32,000 nt of DNA from an uncultured Erysipelotrichaceae bacterium (lineage in GTDB: Bacteria; Bacillota_I; Bacilli_A; Erysipelotrichales; Erysipelotrichaceae), in assembly GCA_942492995.1 (NCBI GenBank), contig OW818653.1:810001-842000 (forward strand), in the 5' to 3' direction. Shown one piece after another: positions 2,587 to 18,998 of the stretch; position 1 is the stretch's first letter, and the number at the start of each line of letters is the position of its first letter. The translations under genes were made by a program, and so were the position numbers. Under the pieces are notes generated by a model, which saw nothing but the letters and a program-made list of their open reading frames with translations, searched no databases and was not told the origin of the DNA.

Positions 2587-2617
2587 ATTAGTATAATTGA
2601 AAGCGAGTAAAAAGAAA

Positions 2618-3469
2618 ATGGAATATATCAAACTTAATAATGGCGTGATTATGCCACAAATAGGTTTTGGGACAATTGGTCTAACAGATGAGGTAGAAGC
2701 AAATGAAGTAATTCTAAATGCAATAAATGCTGGCTATCGTTTATTTGATACAGCACAAGGTTATGGCAATGAAGCTATCGTGGGTCAAGCCATCAAGAAT
2801 AGCCCTATCCCTCGTGATGAACTCTTTATCACTACTAAACTTTGGTTATCTGATGCGACGTACGAGAGAGCTAAGGTATCCATACAAGGATCATTAGATC
2901 GACTTCAACTAGACTATATTGATTTATTTCTAATACATCATCCTTACAATGATATTTATGGAGCTTATAGAGCACTTACAGAATTCTATAAAACAGGCAA
3001 AATTAGAGCGATTGGGGTAAGCAATCTCTATCCAGATCGTTTGATTGATTTTGTTAAATTTAATGAAATAACACCACAAGTAAATCAAGTTGAGATTCAC
3101 TTACTTCACCAACAAGATAGTGCAATTGAGATAATGAATAAATATTCAGTTCAAGCTCAAGCATGGATGCCTTTAGCAAGAGGACATAAAGCTATTTTTG
3201 AAAATCCTTATGTACAAGGGTTAGCAGCTAAATATCACAAAACCGTTGGACAAATCGCGCTCAGATTCTTAGTTCAAAAAGGTGTCGCATTAGTTATGAA
3301 AACAACAAAAAAAGAGAGAATGATAGAAAACATGGATGTATTTAATTTCATGCTTACAGATGAAGAAATGTTAGAAATTAAGAAATTAGATACGAAGAAT
3401 TCAATTGTCTTTTCTCATAAAGATCCAGCACAAGTAGAACGATTCGCTGCGTGGGAACGCAAATATTAA
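2618..3469 (+). CDS. Aldo/keto reductase (2,5-didehydrogluconate reductase-like)
   Basis: MEYIKLNNG...FDTAQGYGNE...LWLSD...LIHHP: the AKR catalytic D/Y/K/H pattern. I prefer the ATG at 2618 over the TTG at 2597. Confidence 0.9.
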   Translation: MEYIKLNNGVIMPQIGFGTIGLTDEVEANEVILNAINAGYRLFDTAQGYGNEAIVGQAIKNSPIPRDELFITTKLWLSDATYERAKVSIQGSLDRLQLDYIDLFLIHHPYNDIYGAYRALTEFYKTGKIRAIGVSNLYPDRLIDFVKFNEITPQVNQVEIHLLHQQDSAIEIMNKYSVQAQAWMPLARGHKAIFENPYVQGLAAKYHKTVGQIALRFLVQKGVALVMKTTKKERMIENMDVFNFMLTDEEMLEIKKLDTKNSIVFSHKDPAQVERFAAWERKY

Positions 3470-3479
3470 GGAGATAAAA

Positions 3480-4484
3480 ATGGAATATATCAAACTTGGG
3501 AATACAGGATTAGAAGTCTCACGCTTGTGTATAGGGACTATGACTTTTGGTCTACAAACAAATCGTGAGGAAGCATTTAAAATATTAGATGAGGCAAAAG
3601 CTGCGGGTATCAATTTTATCGATACCGCTAATGTCTATCCAATAGGTAGAGCTTCATACAATGAAGCTGGATCGACTGAAGTGATTATTGGTGAATGGTT
3701 ACAAACTCAGAAACGAGAAGATTTTGTGATAGTCAGTAAATGCTTTGGTACGATGGGACCTGATTCAACTGATAAAGGTTTAAGCAGAACAGCAATTTTA
3801 AAAGCTGTGGAAGCCAGTTTAGAAAGACTTCAAACAACTTACATAGATCTTTACTTAGCACATCAGTTTGATGAAAATATCGATTATATGGAAACACTCT
3901 CTGCTTTTAATGAATTGATTCAAAGTGGTAAAGTTAAACATATTGGTATTTCTAATTGGCGTAGTTGGCAAATCATGAAAGCGAACGGATTAGCATTAGC
4001 TAATAAATTAACTCCATATACTGTAATTGAACCACGCTATAATCTACTCTTTAGAATGATAGAAGATGATTTGCTTCCTATGGCAATTGAAGAGAACATG
4101 GCTGTAATTACCTATAATCCCCTCGCTGCTGGATTACTTACGGGTAAATATACAAATAATGAAGAAACAATTGAGGGTACTCGCTTTACCTTGGGTGGTG
4201 CGACAAGTGCTCTATATCAAGAACGTTATTGGCAAAAAGCACAATTTGATGCAGTTGATGCATATCGAGTTTGGTGTGTAGAACAAGGATTGGAAATGAT
4301 ACCAACAGCGATAAAATGGGTTCTTCAACAAAAAGGAATTACCTCTGTCATTATTGGAGCAAGTCGTGTACAACAATTAGCTGATAGTTTAAAGGTAGTT
4401 AATATGCAAGACTTAACACAATCACAACTCAAATGGCTTAATAATCTTTGGTATAGTCTACCAAGAAGAAATGAAAATAGATAA
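3480..4484 (+). CDS. Aldo/keto reductase (long, Tas/YghZ-like type)
   Basis: AAGGAG RBS. MEYIKLGNTGLEVSRLCIGTMTFG...FIDTANVYP...GISNW motifs. Confidence 0.9.
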   Translation: MEYIKLGNTGLEVSRLCIGTMTFGLQTNREEAFKILDEAKAAGINFIDTANVYPIGRASYNEAGSTEVIIGEWLQTQKREDFVIVSKCFGTMGPDSTDKGLSRTAILKAVEASLERLQTTYIDLYLAHQFDENIDYMETLSAFNELIQSGKVKHIGISNWRSWQIMKANGLALANKLTPYTVIEPRYNLLFRMIEDDLLPMAIEENMAVITYNPLAAGLLTGKYTNNEETIEGTRFTLGGATSALYQERYWQKAQFDAVDAYRVWCVEQGLEMIPTAIKWVLQQKGITSVIIGASRVQQLADSLKVVNMQDLTQSQLKWLNNLWYSLPRRNENR

Positions 4485-4896: not shown

Positions 4897-5760
<864 letters not shown>

Positions 5761-11001: not shown

Positions 11002-11604
11002 TTAATATTGAGTTTGTATATACTCTTCTCTATAAGCATATTCATAATGATTTGATGTATAACTTGCTGAAAAATTTATTGTAACTGAAGATCCAACTGC
11101 AACATTTACACCACCACCATAAGTAGTAGTTCCGTTATCAAAGAAATCACCATTTACAATAAAAAATATTTTATATGCCGATTCTAAATTTGCATAAACT
11201 GTTCCGCCAAATTGTTTTGACATATTATCATAATTTCTGTCCATAGAAACATTCAAAATTCTAACAATTCCCCAATAACCGCCACCTTCAGATGTTTCAC
11301 AATAAAATCTCATCTGAATTTTGTACAAAGAAGTTATTTCAACCTGTTTTGCAACAGTTCTATATGTAGCCGATAATGCTCCTAAAGCACTTCTTGAAGT
11401 TGGTAGTGGCATTTGTAATTTAGCCTCTTCAATTGATATTCTATTGTCTTTAGCAATTGCTTCAACAACTTGATCATATGTCATTACTTCACTTATTACA
11501 ATGTTTTTATCATTTATATTTATACTACTATTCTTAGCTGAAACCTCTTGTGGTATAAATAGAAACAAACACAATAATACAACTTTGATAAAAATATTTT
11601 TCAT
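11002..11604 (-). CDS. Secreted protein of unknown function (module C cargo)
   Basis: Sec signal peptide ending QEVSA|K. Mature part is Gly/Asn/Tyr/Thr-rich with a single Cys. AAAGGTGA RBS. Confidence 0.7.
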   Translation of the reverse strand: MKNIFIKVVLLCLFLFIPQEVSAKNSSININDKNIVISEVMTYDQVVEAIAKDNRISIEEAKLQMPLPTSRSALGALSATYRTVAKQVEITSLYKIQMRFYCETSEGGGYWGIVRILNVSMDRNYDNMSKQFGGTVYANLESAYKIFFIVNGDFFDNGTTTYGGGVNVAVGSSVTINFSASYTSNHYEYAYREEYIQTQY

Positions 11605-11619
11605 TTTATCACCTTTCTT

Positions 11620-11695
11620 TTTTCAATTACCACCTATTTAACTAAATCCAAAGAAATTTATTATATTTAGAACTTACTTAATAAAATAGCCTCAA
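11620..11695 (-). pseudogene. Decayed agrD remnant (module C)
   Basis: Same SD + TTG overlap with the agrB stop as at 15850, but it reads M-R-L-F-Y-stop. Downstream ATTTCTTTGGATT aligns with the FFG ring codons of the intact copy. Confidence 0.5.
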
Positions 11696-12255
11696 TCTTT
11701 TACCCCCTTTCTTCCCATTAATAACAATGCTGAAGTACTTATTAATACATAACTAAGAACTAGATATATTGGATTCTTAAGAAAATATAAAACTAATGTT
11801 AATAACATTAAAACAAATGAAATGATTCTGCTTGTAATTTTGTGAAACGATTTTTTCTCTTTACTCATTTTTTTATTCTTATGTTCAATTGGAGCTAGGA
11901 GAAATATTATCACTATTGACATGATCACAGTTATAAATAAACCTTCATATGAAAACATAATGTTACTTCTGTAATAGATAAAAATTAAATATACTGTTAT
12001 AAATGAAAGATTACATGACAAATATGTCTTTGAATGATATCCTCCAGTACATTGGCGAAGCAGTATGAAACATATAAGAAATACGAGCGAATCAAAAAAT
12101 GTATTCGACAAATAGCCAATTATTAATATCAAACTTATTCCGATTAGAGAAGAAATTAGTAATTCAAAACCGTACTTGTATATTTCAAACTTATCTTGAA
12201 TTACTCCAACTTTTTGTAATCTTAGTGTGATTGTGTTTGTAAGTTCATTTATCAT
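11692..12255 (-). CDS. agrB: AgrB-family accessory gene regulator B (AIP-processing membrane peptidase), paralogue 1
   Basis: Polytopic 187-aa protein. LRQCTGGYHSKTYLSC has His and Cys 7 residues apart, as in S. aureus AgrB H77/C84. Confidence 0.85.
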   Translation of the reverse strand: MINELTNTITLRLQKVGVIQDKFEIYKYGFELLISSLIGISLILIIGYLSNTFFDSLVFLICFILLRQCTGGYHSKTYLSCNLSFITVYLIFIYYRSNIMFSYEGLFITVIMSIVIIFLLAPIEHKNKKMSKEKKSFHKITSRIISFVLMLLTLVLYFLKNPIYLVLSYVLISTSALLLMGRKGVKD

Positions 12256-12285: not shown

Positions 12286-12316
12286 TTTAAAAACCAAGTA
12301 CTCTGGTGCACTTGGT
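12286..12316 (-). terminator. Conserved hairpin (terminator/attenuator) between kinase and agrB
   Basis: On the minus strand, CCAAGTGCACCAGAGTACTTGG followed by TTTTTAAAT. It starts at the kinase stop codon. Copies also at 16450-16471 and 18063-18084. Confidence 0.6.
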
Positions 12317-13614
12317 CATATTAGTGGTGTATCTGGTATTTTTAATAACACTTCTGCATTAAATACTTTGCTATTTTCATAAAAATCTATACTACCTTCA
12401 TATTTATTCACTATGCTCTTTATGCTCAAAATTCCATACCCATGATTCTTTTTATTTTCTTTTTGTGATTTAAACCAGAAATTTTTCTCTTTGACAGAAT
12501 CCTTAATTGTATTACTAATTTTTATGAATAGGTATTCGTTAATAATCTTTAATTCAACCTGTAAATGTTTATCATTAGGATCAATATTCTCAATCGCATT
12601 ATCTAGCAGATTCCCTAGACTTATCGCTAGATCTCTATCATCAATATTTATTTTATTATCTATGTTTATAGTTATTTTGGATTTAATGTTTAAAGAATTA
12701 GCTATACTTATTTTTTGATTTAATATTGAATCTATTCCTTGAATACCAGTGAAAATATAATCAGAATTGTTTGTAACCTCATTAACATCTCTAAAAAGTT
12801 GATTTAATTTATCAAATTCTTTATTTATAATATATTGATTAGCTAATACTAGAATATGTTTCGTATCATGTCTAAGCTTTTGTAGTTCGAAGTTCAATGT
12901 TTTTAACTCATTGTAACTTCTTTCCCTTGCATGTAGATCTTGAATAACTTGTTCTTGTTCAAACTTAATTTTTTGATCAAATTGAATTTTTATGAAAATA
13001 TAATATACAAATCCAAACTGTAAAATAGCTGCAATAGTCGCAATTCTAATGGTTTTATAGTCAATTTGATGAGTGAAAATAATCCCATAAAGCAATACTA
13101 TAATGCTGTAACTTAGAATTAAAACAACTAATATTAGAAACCAACTCTTCGAATCAACATTATAAGATAGACTTTTCTGACCTTTTATACAGATATTCAA
13201 TATAATTATTAATATGAGTTTAGATAGAATTATCACTATCCACTTGCCATAAGTAATATTATTCAATAAATAAATTATTTCGACATTCAACAACATTGAG
13301 ATAATAAGCAAACTAATAAAATTCGTAATTGCTATCATTAATATAACAAAGACACTAGAAAAAACGCGTTCCAATTTTGAACTTATTGTTGTATAGCTAG
13401 TATATATGTAAAGAAATAATGAGACTAATAGTGGTGAAATACCATCAAATTCGTAGTAATAATTAGAAACAGACAAAGTGATAAAAATTAGTGTTCCAAA
13501 AAGTATAGTAATACTCAAAGAATTCTTCTTACTTTGTTTATGAAAATAATTAACAAAATAAATTAAGATCAATACTTCTATTACATTAAGAAACAAATTT
13601 AAATACAGTTCCAT
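12316..13614 (-). CDS. agrC: AgrC-like sensor histidine kinase (HPK10-type)
   Basis: N-terminal half is polytopic (about 6-7 TM). H-box KLRHDTKHIL, N-box LGNLLDNAIEN and G-box HGYGILSI. Confidence 0.85.
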   Translation of the reverse strand: MELYLNLFLNVIEVLILIYFVNYFHKQSKKNSLSITILFGTLIFITLSVSNYYYEFDGISPLLVSLFLYIYTSYTTISSKLERVFSSVFVILMIAITNFISLLIISMLLNVEIIYLLNNITYGKWIVIILSKLILIIILNICIKGQKSLSYNVDSKSWFLILVVLILSYSIIVLLYGIIFTHQIDYKTIRIATIAAILQFGFVYYIFIKIQFDQKIKFEQEQVIQDLHARERSYNELKTLNFELQKLRHDTKHILVLANQYIINKEFDKLNQLFRDVNEVTNNSDYIFTGIQGIDSILNQKISIANSLNIKSKITINIDNKINIDDRDLAISLGNLLDNAIENIDPNDKHLQVELKIINEYLFIKISNTIKDSVKEKNFWFKSQKENKKNHGYGILSIKSIVNKYEGSIDFYENSKVFNAEVLLKIPDTPLI

Positions 13615-14315
13615 TAATATTTATTCCTTAAATAGTCAATATACTTACTCTTAACATAATTAAATTTTAATCTTGAAACAGGTAGTTTTAAATTATTATG
13701 ATCAATGTACAATTCATTGTTTTCAATTTTATTAACATACTGTAAGTTTACCAATATAGAGTTATGTATTCTAATTAAACGAGTATCATTAATCTCTTCT
13801 TCAAATTTTGAAATACTTTTTCTATATTTGTATTCTCTATTTTTGTTACACTTTATCACAATGTAGTTCTTCATCTTTTCAATGTAAACTATCTCGGTGA
13901 TTTGCAAACTTATGATTTCATTATTTACTGTAATTAATACAGTCTTACGTTTCTTATTAATATCTTCAAGTAAAAGATCTAACGCTAGAATTAAGTCATT
14001 CGTCAATGCACTTTTTCTAACAAAATAAAAAGGGTTTACTTTAAATGAATTGAAAACTAGATTGTCGTGATTTGTAATAAATATAATATACCCGTCAGGA
14101 TTTAACTTTCTAATTTTCTCTGCTAATTCAATACCGTTCATCACTGGCATATCAATATCTAAAAGGTAAACATCAAAAAAATCTTGAGTAATTTTTAAAT
14201 CTGTTGAAAGTTGAAATATTTCCAAATTTAATTCTTGATCTATTTTTTCTCTGACGATTAAACTAATACAATTAATATCGTTAATGTTATCATCAACAAT
14301 TGCAATACGTAACAT
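13614..14315 (-). CDS. agrA: LytTR-family response regulator (AgrA-like)
   Basis: Receiver domain with DD...LLDIDMP. C-terminal LytTR domain (IVYIE...IRIHNS.LVN). TAATG overlap with the kinase start. Confidence 0.9.
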   Translation of the reverse strand: MLRIAIVDDNINDINCISLIVREKIDQELNLEIFQLSTDLKITQDFFDVYLLDIDMPVMNGIELAEKIRKLNPDGYIIFITNHDNLVFNSFKVNPFYFVRKSALTNDLILALDLLLEDINKKRKTVLITVNNEIISLQITEIVYIEKMKNYIVIKCNKNREYKYRKSISKFEEEINDTRLIRIHNSILVNLQYVNKIENNELYIDHNNLKLPVSRLKFNYVKSKYIDYLRNKY

Positions 14316-14471: not shown

Positions 14472-14522
14472 AAAAAACTGAAACTTCAAATATAATATAT
14501 CAATATATCTTTGAAGTTTCAG
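14472..14522 (-). terminator. Rho-independent terminator after module B
   Basis: 13-bp stem ctgaaacttcaaa/tttgaagtttcag, followed by T6 on the minus strand. Confidence 0.8.
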
Positions 14523-14570: not shown

Positions 14571-14879
14571 CTAATCAAAAGTAAACCCAGCAGCTTTTTG
14601 TATCGATTTGATTAATTTGACTGTTTTATCGTAACTAATCCCAATCGAAACATCCAATCCATTATTCGCTTTACTAATTACTTCTAACACAAACTCCTCA
14701 ACATTAATTTGAGATCTCAAGTCCTCTGGGACTTCAATATCATGCTCGATTAACCAATTTTGAACATCATCATATTTTAAATTTAAAGCAACTTCTTTTA
14801 GTTCTTCATTAATATTTTTACATGATGTTAAAAAAAATGAGATAAATAGTATAACCAATATTAAACTTAATTTTTTCAT
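14571..14879 (-). CDS. Small lipoprotein (module B partner; immunity-like)
   Basis: MKKLSLILVILFISFFLTSC lipobox. The track start (TTG 14888) is probably too long. Overlaps or abuts the upstream gene. Confidence 0.65.
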   Translation of the reverse strand: MKKLSLILVILFISFFLTSCKNINEELKEVALNLKYDDVQNWLIEHDIEVPEDLRSQINVEEFVLEVISKANNGLDVSIGISYDKTVKLIKSIQKAAGFTFD

Positions 14880-14880
14880 C

Positions 14881-15681
14881 TTATTCAATAGAACCTCTTA
14901 CTTGCAGAAATCCAACAATATAGTATATAGAACTTGTATATGTTGTACTTGGTGCATAAGTTACACCATTAAATGAACCTTCATTTGTCCAAGTTGTATA
15001 GCCTGGTGATGTAAATTTCCATGTTAATATATTTGTATTCCCAGGTTTATGTCTCCATGTATTTACCGTTATTGCTTTCATAACATGAAAATCTGACATA
15101 CCTTTTCTTATCGCTAATACAATATTTGATCCAGAAATCGTTGTAGGTTTAGTTGTTGTTTTATATGCACTAAAGCCCATTTGTGTTAAATCATTTATTA
15201 CTAAGTCAGCCATTTGAGAAATTGACATATCTATTGAAAATCCCCCACCACTTAAATCCCCAGGAGTAAGCCATTGGGTAGTATTAGATAACCCATAAGA
15301 GTAACAATTATAATTTAGAAATGTATTACTCCAACTTCCATAAACTGTACTATTTACTAAAGTATATGCAGCTAGTTGTATATCATTAGTTTTGTATGAG
15401 TATGCAGTTAAAAGTTCATTATAGAGTTGTTGAGTTGGCAAATAGTTGTAAAAACCTGGTTCACCTCTCTTAGCATGCTCATTAAGTTCTTCCAAGATAG
15501 CATCTCTATTTTCCGAATATTTTATTTCATTAGGAATATCAACTCCTAGCAATTGAATTTCATCAATTATAGGGATTGAATTCTCTATATATGCCTTTAC
15601 TGGAGCAGTAAAAATTGAAATAATAATCATCAGAATTGCAAACAAACTTTTCTTAAAAATATAACTTATAGTTTTTTTCAT
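14881..15681 (-). CDS. Secreted protein of unknown function with possible Cys/His hydrolase motif (module B cargo)
   Basis: ATG at 15681 with AAAGGA RBS. Signal peptide ends PVKA|Y. The only Cys of the mature protein sits in NYNCYSYG, with DFHVMK about 75 residues downstream. Confidence 0.7.
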   Translation of the reverse strand: MKKTISYIFKKSLFAILMIIISIFTAPVKAYIENSIPIIDEIQLLGVDIPNEIKYSENRDAILEELNEHAKRGEPGFYNYLPTQQLYNELLTAYSYKTNDIQLAAYTLVNSTVYGSWSNTFLNYNCYSYGLSNTTQWLTPGDLSGGGFSIDMSISQMADLVINDLTQMGFSAYKTTTKPTTISGSNIVLAIRKGMSDFHVMKAITVNTWRHKPGNTNILTWKFTSPGYTTWTNEGSFNGVTYAPSTTYTSSIYYIVGFLQVRGSIE

Positions 15682-15730
15682 ATTTTTCCTTTCATTTAGC
15701 AATTAATACACACATATTCTATGAAATGAA

Positions 15731-15850
15731 TTAGATTTCTGGTTCTTCAGCTTGATATAAGCCAAAGAATGAAGCGCTTCCTGCATTTATATAAGCTGTT
15801 CTTAATGCAATTAGCGCGAATAATCTATAAATACTATCAATTATCTTCAA
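15731..15850 (-). CDS. agrD: AgrD-like autoinducing-peptide precursor, 39 aa, Cys-less (not in ORF track)
   Basis: AGGAGG SD lies 7 nt before a TTG that overlaps the agrB TGA (gaTTGAag). Translation by hand: MKIIDSIYRLFALIALRTAYINAGSASFFGLYQAEEPEI. It has an amphipathic N-terminal helix and an acidic E-P tail, and sits directly after agrB. Confidence 0.7.
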   Translation of the reverse strand: MKIIDSIYRLFALIALRTAYINAGSASFFGLYQAEEPEI

Positions 15851-16410
15851 TCTTTTACCTCCTTTCTTCCCATTAATAACAATACTGAAGTACTTATTAA
15901 TACATAACTAAGAACTAGATATATTGGATTCTTAAGAAAATATAAAACTAATGTTAATAACATTAAAACAAATGAAATGATTCTACTTGTAAATTTGTGA
16001 AATGACTTTTGTTCTATATTCATTTTTTTATTCTTATGTTCCATTGGCGCAAGGATAAATATTATCACTATTGACGTAATCACAATTATAAATAACTCTT
16101 CATATGAAAATGCTATATAATTTCTGTAATAGATAAGAATTAAATATACTGTTATAAACGAAAGATTACATGATAAATAAGTTCTTGAATGATACCCTCC
16201 AGTACATTGGCGAAGTATTATAAAGCAAACAAGAAATACTAGCGAATCAGAAAAAGTATTCGACAATAAGCCTATTATTAATATCAAACTTATTCCGATC
16301 AAAGAAGAAATTAGTAATTCAAAACCGTACTTGTATATTTCAAACTTATCTTGAATTACTCCAACTTTTTGTAATCTTAATGTGATTGTATTTGAAAGTT
16401 CATTTATCAT
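15847..16410 (-). CDS. agrB: AgrB-family protein, paralogue 2
   Basis: About 21 substitutions versus paralogue 1 over 187 aa by eye. H74/C81 motif retained (GGYHSRTYLSC). Confidence 0.85.
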   Translation of the reverse strand: MINELSNTITLRLQKVGVIQDKFEIYKYGFELLISSLIGISLILIIGLLSNTFSDSLVFLVCFIILRQCTGGYHSRTYLSCNLSFITVYLILIYYRNYIAFSYEELFIIVITSIVIIFILAPMEHKNKKMNIEQKSFHKFTSRIISFVLMLLTLVLYFLKNPIYLVLSYVLISTSVLLLMGRKEVKD

Positions 16411-16444: not shown

Positions 16445-16540
16445 AAAAACCAAGTGCTCTGGTGCACTTGGTCATATTTCTGGTGTATTTGGTATTTTAA
16501 CAAGAATTTTGAGATTTTTTAAATGAAAATTAAACACTAT
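16445..16540 (-). repeat. Repeat unit: conserved hairpin plus remnant of the kinase 3' end
   Basis: Minus strand AAAATACCAAATACACCAGAAATATGACCAAGTGCACCAGAGCACTTGG aligns with the last codons of the kinase (KIPDTPLI-stop) plus the hairpin at 12293-12360. Confidence 0.7.
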
Positions 16541-16592: not shown

Positions 16593-16877
16593 TTAGAACT
16601 TCAGTGTTAAAAACAAATACGTAACTATTGCGAGTAAAATACAACTTATATAGCACTTTCCTCTATATTTAGTTGTAGTTGGAATAATTTTCTCAATGCT
16701 ATTAATAAAATTAATAAGAAGTAGAGTACTAATAGATATTACAAAACTCAACTTTGGATAGTCATATAAGGCATAATAAGATTGCGTCAATGTCCATGCC
16801 CAAACAGAAAGAAGTATACCAAGTAAGCAATACAATTTAATTAAAAGTTTTTTTTCCTTCTCCATTAATTTCCTCAC
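16593..16877 (-). CDS. Small three-TM membrane protein (module A partner; immunity-like)
   Basis: GAGGAAA RBS. 94 aa, hydrophobic. Confidence 0.6.
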   Translation of the reverse strand: MRKLMEKEKKLLIKLYCLLGILLSVWAWTLTQSYYALYDYPKLSFVISISTLLLINFINSIEKIIPTTTKYRGKCYISCILLAIVTYLFLTLKF

Positions 16878-17016
16878 AAATTAGTCGTGTTTGCTAATAG
16901 CTTAATTTAAACAACATATAAGTACTTTATAAATATCTAATTTTGTATAGAAGTTATTTCACAATCAATATCTTATGACTATTTGGCTTTTCTTTTAAAT
17001 TATCTCCACAATTATT

Positions 17017-17706
17017 TCATGGCCCACCTGGTGTTGTATTGGTAAAGTCATAGTATTCATATATAGGAGAACCACTATAATCGGCATGAAAATAACCCTT
17101 AGAGACACAGTTCATCCAGTACCAACCAACAAAATATAAATTCCCATTCAAATCCATAGCTAGTTGTTCGTATGTATCTACTTCTGTTTTAAACCATATC
17201 CCACTTCCAGTATAACTCACAAATGTTGCAGAAGAAATAAGTGAAGTTGCAAACGATAACGCTTCAACCCAAGGCATTTTTTTGATTTTTGCGATAATAG
17301 CCAGTGCTAATGATGCTGTACTCATTCCGATCGAAAACCCACCAATATAATGATTAAATGTATTTGTACCAACATATCTATCATAATAGCCATTTGCCAT
17401 TGGCTGAACTAAGCTAGGAGTACTTTCACTTCTTTCAATATAATCCATTTCTCCACTATATTTCTCAATATTACCATTTTTATTCACAATCAGAATATAT
17501 TTATTGTTAGGAAAATATTCTATTCTTGATTTTACTACGACACCTTCTTCGATGTAATTAGCTTCTTCTACAAAAACTTCACCAATTAAGTATCTTTTCT
17601 CATTAAATGTTCTATTCACATTTGAACCAATTTTCATTCCATTTACGGGTTGAATATTTATTATTGTAATCATAGCTATCACAAATAATTTTATAATTTT
17701 ACTCAT
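17017..17706 (-). CDS. Secreted protein of unknown function (module A cargo)
   Basis: AGAGGAAAGGG RBS. Signal peptide ends around PVNG. A central hydrophobic stretch (GFSIGMSTASLALAIIAKI). No family recognised. Confidence 0.65.
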   Translation of the reverse strand: MSKIIKLFVIAMITIINIQPVNGMKIGSNVNRTFNEKRYLIGEVFVEEANYIEEGVVVKSRIEYFPNNKYILIVNKNGNIEKYSGEMDYIERSESTPSLVQPMANGYYDRYVGTNTFNHYIGGFSIGMSTASLALAIIAKIKKMPWVEALSFATSLISSATFVSYTGSGIWFKTEVDTYEQLAMDLNGNLYFVGWYWMNCVSKGYFHADYSGSPIYEYYDFTNTTPGGP

Positions 17707-17758: not shown

Positions 17759-18023
17759 TTAGTTTTTATTTATCCCAAAGAATTGCACTTTCAAAACTCT
17801 TATTTAAAAAATGCTTAGTAGAAATCTTGTTAATTCCAACATAATTTCTCTCTGTTTTTCATGATAAACTTCTTTCATTCAATGAAATTAAGACTAAAAT
17901 TATCATAAATTTTTTTTGAAACAATAAGTAATACAAAATGTACTTATAAATTTCAAACTTTTCTTTAATTACTCAAATTTCAAGTAATCTTAGTGCTACT
18001 ATATTTGAAAGTTCATTTATCAT
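17759..18023 (-). pseudogene. Decayed agrB (5' fragment with in-frame TGA) plus decayed agrD remnant
   Basis: ATG at 18023 reads MINELSNIVALRLLEI-stop, with TGA where the paralogues have GGA. Homology continues (VIKEKFEIYKY) and then collapses. At 17842..17759 a short frame with an in-frame TAA (17806..17804) retains the TTCTTTGG (FFG) codons. Confidence 0.65.
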
Positions 18024-18054
18024 ATTTTCTCTATACTTAATTTATCAGAATATA

Positions 18055-18150
18055 TTTAAAAACCAAGTACTCTGGTGCACTTGGTTATATTTGTGGTGTA
18101 TTAGGTATTCTTTCAATTATTTCTAGATTTTTTAATGGAATATTTGAACA
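18055..18150 (-). repeat. Repeat unit: conserved hairpin plus remnant of the kinase 3' end (third copy)
   Basis: Minus strand GAATACCTAATACACCACAAATATAACCAAGTGCACCAGAGTACTTGG aligns with the kinase 3' end and hairpin. Confidence 0.7.
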
Positions 18151-18452: not shown

Positions 18453-18526
18453 TGGAGCGGATGATGGGAATCGAACCCACGTAGTCAGCTTGGAAGGCTG
18501 AAGTTCTACCATTGAACTACATCCGC
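18453..18526 (-). tRNA. tRNA-Gly(UCC)
   Basis: GCGGATGTAGTTCAATGGTAGAAC...CUUCCAA anticodon loop...GGGTTCGATTCCC...CATCCGCTCCA. CCA is encoded. Confidence 0.92.
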
Positions 18527-18537
18527 GGTGGTAAAAT

Positions 18538-18613
18538 TGGTGACCTGTGGGGGACTCGAACCCTCGACCCACTGATTAAAAGTCAGTTGCTCTACCACCT
18601 GAGCTAACAGGTC
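18538..18613 (-). tRNA. tRNA-Lys(UUU)
   Basis: GACCTGTTAGCTCAGGTGGTAGAGC...CUUUUAA loop...TTCGAGT...ACAGGTCACCA. A-C mismatch in the T-stem. Confidence 0.88.
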
Positions 18614-18621
18614 ACAATAAA

Positions 18622-18697
18622 TGGCTGGGGTACCTGGATTCGGACCAGGGAGATGCCAGAGTCAAAGTCTGGTGCCTTACCGCTTGGCTATACCCCA
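18622..18697 (-). tRNA. tRNA-Gln(UUG)
   Basis: TGGGGTATAGCCAAGCGGTAAGGC...CUUUGAC loop...TACCCCAGCCA. The T-loop reads TCCGAAT. Confidence 0.85.
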
Positions 18698-18705
18698 AGA
18701 TTGAA

Positions 18706-18790
18706 TGGTGGGGGGGGACGGATTCGAACCGCCGAACTCGGAGAGAATTGATTTACAGTCAACCGCGTTTAGCCACTTCGCTACCCCCCC
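18706..18790 (-). tRNA. tRNA-Tyr(GUA)
   Basis: GGGGGGGTAGCGAAGTGGCTAAACGC...CUGUAAA loop, long variable arm, GGTTCGAATCC, CCCCCCCACCA. Confidence 0.9.
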
Positions 18791-18820
18791 AGAAAATAAC
18801 TGGGAGCCAACAAAATAAAA

Positions 18821-18896
18821 TGGTGCCGGCTATAGGACTTGAACCCACAACCTACTGATTACAAATCAGTTGCTCTGCCAATTGAGCTAAGCCGGC
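18821..18896 (-). tRNA. tRNA-Thr(UGU)
   Basis: GCCGGCTTAGCTCAATTGGCAGAGC...UUUGUAA loop...GGTTCAAGTCC...GCCGGCACCA. Confidence 0.92.
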
Positions 18897-18922
18897 ACAC
18901 GTAAACTTGAGAAAAAAAAGAA

Positions 18923-18998
18923 TGGTGGAGGCTGAGGGGCTCGAACCCCCGACCCTCTGCTTGTAAGGCAGACGCTCTCCCAGCTGAGCTAAGCCTCC
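18923..18998 (-). tRNA. tRNA-Val(UAC)
   Basis: GGAGGCTTAGCTCAGCTGGGAGAGC...CUUACAA loop...GGTTCGAGCCC...GCCTCCACCA. Confidence 0.92.

Follow-up and report, generated by a model that had tools for sequence, protein, structure and literature searches.

The agrD gene and its coupling to agrB2

The 39-codon ORF at 15731–15850 on the minus strand of the window (the whole 32,000-nt stretch of DNA that was analysed) very probably serves an agr-type quorum-sensing locus as its sole functional agrD, and would be translated by coupling to agrB2 through a strong Shine–Dalgarno sequence and a 4-nt overlap. The ORF list and the sequence give the product as MKIIDSIYRLFALIALRTAYINAGSASFFGLYQAEEPEI, with the TTG start read as Met; the coordinates include the stop codon, and the minus strand at this ORF reads, 5′–3′, ...GGAAGAAAGGAGGTAAAAGATTGAAGATAATT... 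The agrD TTG (15850–15848) runs into the agrB2 stop codon TGA (15849–15847), so that the junction reads gaTTGAag. The Shine–Dalgarno sequence, AGGAGG at 15858–15863 on the minus strand, lies inside the 3′ end of agrB2 with a 7-nt spacer to the TTG, and is kept among relatives as AGGAGG or AGGGGG. The first-pass annotation had placed the ORF, its start codon, the overlap with the agrB2 stop and the AGGAGG just as we find them, and had left out the strand. The ORF has no internal start codon and lies in DNA of 30.5% G+C.

An AgrD HMM search, which had been proposed as a check, bore out the reading of the peptide as an AgrD-like precursor. The peptide scored 30.9 bits against NCBIfam TIGR04223, for which the curated cut-off is 19 (E = 2.1e-7), with residues 6–38 aligned on profile positions 2–34 of 38. 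The NCBIfam name of this family is 'AgrD family cyclic lactone autoinducer peptide'. The match survives correction for the roughly 580 stop-to-stop segments of at least 25 aa in the window. No Pfam family was matched at E up to 10, including Pfam AgrD, which is of the staphylococcal type. The ORF is also the sole match in the window to the motif [CS]x4-6[YHFW][QE][PA]xxP, and it lies directly 3′ of agrB2 on the same strand, the site expected for an agrD; the same agrB-then-agrD layout is found at at least 28 related loci, and the gene is conserved in the metagenome contigs L046–L050. We rejected the idea of a spurious ORF in view of the HMM score, the position, the coupling to agrB2 and the purifying selection described below. 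From these sequence data we conclude that this is a genuine gene under selection, an ordinary further member of a known AgrD family, whose Ser ring already has an experimentally confirmed precedent. The earlier label of the gene as unannotated reflects a size cut-off, and standard pipelines find such genes, as does published genome mining with PF04647 and TIGR04223, in which about 30,000 AgrDs were collected (PMC12180512). What stands of that label is that an exact look-up in a 15-billion-protein collection did not return this peptide.

A serine ring position conserved among related AgrDs

The precursor can be divided into three parts, all on the minus strand. From the translation and the family logo, the leader is M1–A26 (MKIIDSIYRLFALIALRTAYINAGSA; 15773–15850) and ends in G-S-A before the ring Ser. 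The core is S27-F-F-G-L31 (15758–15772), a predicted five-residue macrolactone with the bond between the S27 side-chain oxygen and the L31 carboxyl, placed by the family alignment and the C. thermocellum register. The tail, Y32–I39 (YQAEEPEI; 15734–15757), has a charge of −3 and by the family logo is predicted to serve AgrB recognition and to be removed. Translation of the whole ORF confirms that the peptide contains no cysteine. The leader had also been called amphipathic, which the numbers favour weakly: the hydrophobic moment reaches a maximum of 0.49 over residues 1–18, a value reached by 136 of 2000 shuffles (p about 0.07).

To place the ring, related AgrDs were compared at the position five before the [Y/H][Q/E]P..P tail. 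Ser occupies this position in 37 of 40 related AgrDs and Cys in three; the relatives were chosen by a pattern demanding C or S at −5, which introduces no bias between Ser and Cys but does fix the register. The anchored logo was built from 37 peptides (34 Ser and 3 Cys at position 0), to which the HMM added three further Ser-type peptides. Around the ring Ser, Ala is found at −1 in 25 peptides and Gly at −3 in 26, and on the tail side +5 is Y, H or F, +6 is Q or E and +10 is Pro in 37/37. Position +7 is Pro in 36/37, the window agrD being the one with Ala; in this peptide the [Y/H][Q/E]-P-x-x-P motif is thus represented by Y32, Q33 and P37. The position of S25 (−2) is variable, with Ser in just 16/37 and T, A, F, M or K otherwise. 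An unanchored MAFFT alignment gave the same picture: P37 does not vary, S27 and P34 hardly do, and the three Cys-type relatives carry their Cys in the S27 column. TIGR04223 is matched by 32/34 aligned relatives. Seven more small peptides came from a profile search against 1.84 billion representative proteins; all are of the form A-S-x4-[Y/H]-Q-P-x-E-P, with L, S, A or T at the position of S25. The ring SFFGL and the cut before YQAEEPEI, as proposed in the first-pass annotation, are supported by these alignments, with S27 conserved and S25 variable, and by the register of C. thermocellum AgrD.

The ring chemistry had further been described as rare and unusual, and here our data disagree. An AgrB-alignment scan of species-representative genomes gave 39 loci in Ruminococcus, Acutalibacteraceae, Lachnospiraceae and other Clostridia, with AgrBs 26–38% identical to that of the window. 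An AgrD could be identified just after agrB in 31 of them, and 28 of these have Ser and three have Cys, in every case five residues ahead of [Y/H/F][Q/E]P..P; the remaining eight had no AgrD in the flanks examined, some of them lying at contig ends, and were left out of the Ser/Cys count. By sequence, then, Ser is the rule as predicted ring nucleophile within this AgrB clade. In a few of the related loci L007–L045 the ring also ends in Cys (SGFGC, SPRFC and SSGLC), and these might use an alternative or bicyclic chemistry.

Partner genes and layout of the agr locus

The locus holds an AgrC-like kinase, a LytTR regulator, two intact agrB genes, one dead agrB fragment and a single agrD, all on the minus strand. 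Reading down that strand from 18.1 kb, the order is tRNAs, the dead agrB fragment, a 229-aa secreted protein gene, a 94-aa membrane protein gene, a hairpin, agrB2 and agrD; there follow genes for a 273-aa and a 105-aa protein, a terminator hairpin, the LytTR regulator, the kinase, agrB1, an agrD remnant and a gene for a 200-aa secreted protein, down to 11.0 kb.

By sequence, agrB2 (15847–16410) encodes an intact AgrB peptidase/cyclase (PF04647, E = 6e-36) with five hydrophobic segments. Its paralogue agrB1 (11692–12255), directly after the kinase gene, is likewise intact, and its product is 89% identical to AgrB2 and identical to P0004, from an NCBI contig. An alignment of 20 AgrBs, both window copies included, shows no variation at H74 and C81. 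The AgrA-like response regulator (13614–14315) has receiver and LytTR domains (PF00072 and PF04397). The AgrC-like sensor histidine kinase (12316–13614) matches PF14501 HATPase_c_5 (E = 2.7e-19) and has six hydrophobic segments within its first 210 residues; its match to the staphylococcal AgrC equivalog of NCBIfam is weak (26.5 bits, far under the cut-off of 500). Behind agrB1, agrD has been lost, and a remnant of its start is left at 11678–11695 (TTG AGG CTA TTT TAT TAA, that is, MRLFY and a stop). A dead third copy at 17935–18129, recognised from the direct-repeat families D2–D4 and a three-copy alignment, consists of an agrB 5′ fragment and a shared upstream block; the fragment has an ATG at 18023 and a stop after 16 codons.

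The transcription signals ahead of agrB2 and agrD count against the functional reading, since a terminator-like hairpin lies before agrB2 and no convincing promoter was found. The hairpin ACCAAGTGCACCAGAGCACTTGGT, followed by T5 (16449–16472, minus strand), is 38 nt upstream of the agrB2 ATG; its duplication also took in the final ~45 nt of the kinase gene. A promoter scan returned 54 sites against 61.8 expected from shuffles, none of them convincing between the hairpin and the agrB2 ATG. An extended −10-like TGtTAAAAT sits directly before the hairpin, in sequence derived from the kinase 3′ end (both within 16449–16523, minus strand). The two elements could form a new promoter with a leader terminator or attenuator, or could just be a leftover terminator. 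Neither agrB1 nor agrB2 has a clear Shine–Dalgarno sequence.

Two genes at 14571–15702 lie between agrD and the regulator gene and encode a 273-aa secreted protein (probably 266 aa, with a weak, sub-threshold match to DUF7689) and a 105-aa lipoprotein. They may be co-transcribed with agrD, as there is no terminator between them and it; an AT-rich terminator hairpin with a T-run follows the two genes at 14472–14522 on the minus strand. In all, five genes for secreted, lipoprotein or membrane proteins stand amid the agr genes (11002–11604, 14571–15702 and 16593–17706, minus strand; 200, 105, 273, 94 and 229 aa). None of these five proteins has a significant relative in Pfam, NCBIfam or the PDB, and the genes at the interleaved positions differ between relatives. 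The interleaved genes may be agr-controlled cargo. A six-tRNA cluster (Gly, Lys, Gln, Tyr, Thr and Val; 18453–18998, minus strand) borders the duplicated agr region, and elsewhere in the window three aldo/keto reductase paralogues lie close together on the plus strand (2597–3469, 3480–4484 and 4909–5760).

Proposed maturation and the form of the signal

What the sequence shows is the gene with its coupling signals, its place in the family, a conserved Ser and tail motif, purifying selection and the full set of partners. The chemical steps, the place of the N-terminal cut and the regulon are inferred, and by analogy with established agr biochemistry a pathway can be proposed as follows. The hydrophobic leader would bring the 39-aa precursor to the membrane, where AgrB2, through its conserved His74 and Cys81, would cut L31|Y32 and free the acidic tail. 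The L31 acyl-enzyme would then be resolved by the side-chain hydroxyl of S27, giving the five-residue macrolactone S-F-F-G-L. The leader would be removed last, most likely right after the conserved G-S-A (a guess from the motif), to leave a tail-free cyclic pentapeptide. This peptide would be sensed by the AgrC-like kinase (12316–13614), with the LytTR regulator (13614–14315) passing the signal on. Cyclic SFFGL has a predicted monoisotopic mass of 551.274 ([M+H]+ 552.2817; linear form 570.2922), and the N-extended cyclic forms are predicted at 623.319, 710.351 and 767.372.

The N-terminal end of the signal admits other readings. The peptide may keep an exocyclic tail (A-SFFGL, SA-SFFGL or GSA-SFFGL) and act as a stable tailed lactone as in staphylococci, which we consider doubtful but worth keeping in view. 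Most characterised AIPs have 2–4 exocyclic residues (PMC8251862), and some relatives have Pro, Lys, Phe or Gln at −1, so that a signal-peptidase-I site does not fit there and a signal-peptidase-like cut before the Ser is incompatible with those sequences. Against a tail, the closest characterised relative, that of C. thermocellum, is tail-free (PMC5322536), and the small residues G24 (−3) and A26 (−1) of the window peptide fit a cut before S27.

Removal of the leader right up to S27 would leave a free alpha-amine beside the ester and allow an O-to-N acyl shift, and the mature signal could then be the isobaric homodetic cyclo(SFFGL) and not the lactone. Tail-free thiolactone AIPs of clostridia and Listeria do rearrange to homodetic cyclopeptides (PMC8251862, PMC11297923). 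Of a synthetic tail-free lactone version of the Listeria AIP, 48% had undergone the O-to-N shift and 36% had been hydrolysed by 22 h at 37°C and pH 7 (PMC11297923), and according to Molloy et al. what becomes of Ser-lactones that lack a tail, the H. thermocellum one among them, 'remains to be clarified' (PMC8251862). The Ala at −1 and Gly at −3 conserved ahead of the ring Ser also agree with such a cut. However, the shift takes hours where thiolactones take minutes (PMC11297923), so that over the time in which signalling takes place the lactone would be the main form; the C. thermocellum product coincided with a synthetic lactone standard in both retention time and fragmentation (PMC5322536); and the N-terminal cut before S27 on which the rearrangement depends is itself presumed. 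We therefore regard cyclo(SFFGL) as an improbable mature signal.

Returning to the tail-free lactone, we put forward, tentatively and as a possibility that may well prove wrong, that a large clostridial agr clade, hardly characterised so far, signals by default with tail-free Ser-lactone pentapeptides, that the reason is the stability of these peptides, and that lactone SFFGL is the form active here. If this is true, a tail-free oxo-ester would last for hours, while a tail-free thiolactone would turn into an inactive or different homodetic peptide within minutes, and the swap of Ser for Cys would set the lifetime of the signal. Lactone SFFGL would then be the active signal at this locus, and cyclo(SFFGL) a product of slow decay or a second signal.

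Duplication, reciprocal loss of agrD and selection

Three copies exist of a unit in which the 3′-terminal ~45 nt of the kinase gene are joined to the hairpin and agrB, and they share an upstream block of ~100 nt. As the repeated unit spans the kinase end as well as the hairpin and agrB, the copies arose by duplication of the agrC–agrB junction. The fate of the copies differs between lineages. L046–L049 still have a full agrD after the kinase-side agrB, and the other copy in the same samples (L051–L054; the two sets share ENA samples ERZ9284048, ERZ9284071 and ERZ9284146) is decayed: in L051–L060 agrB carries a 25-bp insertion and agrD a 1-bp deletion that shifts the frame, which makes the L051–L054 copy a double pseudogene. 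The window shows the reverse arrangement, in which the kinase-side copy has lost agrD and the other copy retains it. Other relatives are broken at or near the same place. L061, a metagenome contig, has the same agrD-loss junction as agrB1 of the window, in L062 six codons of agrD are joined to a membrane ORF of unrelated sequence, and agrB is truncated at its 3′ end in L063 and L064. The agrB/agrD boundary appears to be a recombination hot spot, and the locus shows agr modules duplicating and then losing agrD reciprocally in different lineages.

Exactly one intact agrD was found in each lineage examined, and every intact copy has the same core, SFFGL, indicating that no divergence into specificity groups has taken place. 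The intact orthologues, all on metagenome contigs, are those of L050, with an AgrB 89% identical to that of the window, and of L046–L049 (84% identical). Apart from A34P, their core and tail are those of the window gene, so that SASFFGLYQ.EEPEI is kept, and they differ from it by 5–12 synonymous and 2–3 non-synonymous changes (pN/pS 0.07–0.11). The codon concerned (15749–15751, minus strand) is GCT in the window and CCA in the closest intact orthologues. Among the 40 related AgrDs compared, +7 is Pro in 39, Thr in one and Ala in none, and Ala in place of Pro could impair processing by AgrB. The gene may be intact in sequence and yet a silent or crippled relic in a decaying locus, its product blocked by P34A or by the upstream hairpin. 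The region is plainly in flux, with a dead agrB fragment, an agrB that lacks agrD and decayed or rearranged copies in relatives, and hairpin plus T5 do stand ahead of agrB2. On the other side, the ORF, its Shine–Dalgarno sequence, the coupling to an intact agrB2, the kinase and the regulator are all intact, each lineage examined retains one agrD with the same core, and pN/pS is about 0.1. We consider this explanation quite improbable and retain the reading of a functional agrD.

With the closest database homologue, one of the refuting outcomes named in the first-pass annotation seemed at first to have come true. A word-indexed homologue search gave a single match, P0001 (...AGSALFFGLYQPEEPEI), which has Leu at 27 and keeps S25. 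The profile search described above and the state of the neighbouring agrB led us to reject this peptide as a sign either of an unconserved S27 or of a seven-residue ring closed by S25. DNA alignment showed that the S27L copies (L001–L006) all lie behind an agrB with a 34-bp frame-breaking deletion; loss of S27 was seen only in dead loci, which argues for its importance rather than against it. A seven-residue lactone S-A-S-F-F-G-L closed by S25, for which one could cite P0001 and the existence of larger lactones (the GBAP ring has nine residues), is very improbable given the variability at −2, the pseudogene beside P0001 and the retention of S27 at all intact loci.

Comparison with known agr-type systems

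These results leave the current understanding of the agr mechanism unchanged. They add a further predicted autoinducer of the Ser-lactone type, with SFFGL as its core and all its partner genes in the locus, in a field where only a handful of lactone AIPs have been chemically characterised. The more useful by-product is the frequency: Ser in 28/31 loci with an identifiable AgrD in the sampled AgrB clade, compared with the 'rare cases' as which a paper on clostridial AIPs describes lactone AIPs (PMC8251862). The first-pass annotation had likewise treated Ser-lactones as rare, naming the Staphylococcus intermedius group as their source, but they are known too from C. thermocellum and, as GBAP, from E. 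faecalis, and the family name itself speaks of a cyclic lactone.

The general plan of the locus is that of S. aureus agrBDCA, with the same four functions: an AgrB protease/cyclase, AgrD, a polytopic HPK10-type kinase and a LytTR regulator. Unlike in S. aureus, the gene order is agrB2-agrD-(two exoprotein genes)-agrA-agrC-agrB1, there are two intact agrB genes and one fragment, and the nucleophile is Ser. Among the staphylococci that use Ser, the AIP of S. intermedius has a four-residue exocyclic tail. The S. intermedius/pseudintermedius AIP, as described in the citations of Ji et al. (2005), is an AgrB-made Ser-lactone nonapeptide with a five-residue ring, in which it resembles our prediction. 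Its precursor is a staphylococcal-type AgrD, whereas the tail of the window peptide is of the clostridial [Y/H]QP..P kind, and Pfam AgrD does not match it. FsrD/GBAP of E. faecalis is likewise a Ser-lactone that depends on an AgrB homologue and on sensing of the AgrC/AgrA type, as in the window locus; GBAP is an 11-mer with a nine-residue ring, in contrast to the five residues predicted here. The cAIP of Ruminiclostridium cellulolyticum and the AIP of Listeria monocytogenes are clostridial-type or tail-free pentamers, AgrB-made from precursors with a similar tail (PMC8251862, PMC11297923). They use Cys, and their thiolactone undergoes a rapid S-to-N rearrangement, whereas the ester of Ser rearranges far more slowly (PMC11297923).

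The closest likeness is to the AgrD of C. thermocellum (Clostridium, Hungateiclostridium or Acetivibrio), Clo1313_2818. For this peptide, Verbeke et al. (2017) predicted a leader cut at A24|S25 (PMC5322536). The product is a pentapeptide lactone in which the S25 hydroxyl is esterified with the F29 carboxyl, with Y30 after the ring and a conserved P35, and the cyclic product was confirmed in supernatants by targeted LC–MS/MS against a synthetic standard (PMC5322536). The two precursors share the Ser nucleophile, the five-residue ring and an Ala right before the Ser, and by the published positions they are in the same register: Y30 and P35 there correspond to Y32 and P37 here, with the Pro ten residues after the Ser. 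The cores differ in sequence. The C. thermocellum gene is an orphan, away from agrB, agrC and agrA, whereas the window agrD is coupled to agrB2 and accompanied by a kinase and a regulator, which would make it the cleaner model if the organism can be cultured.
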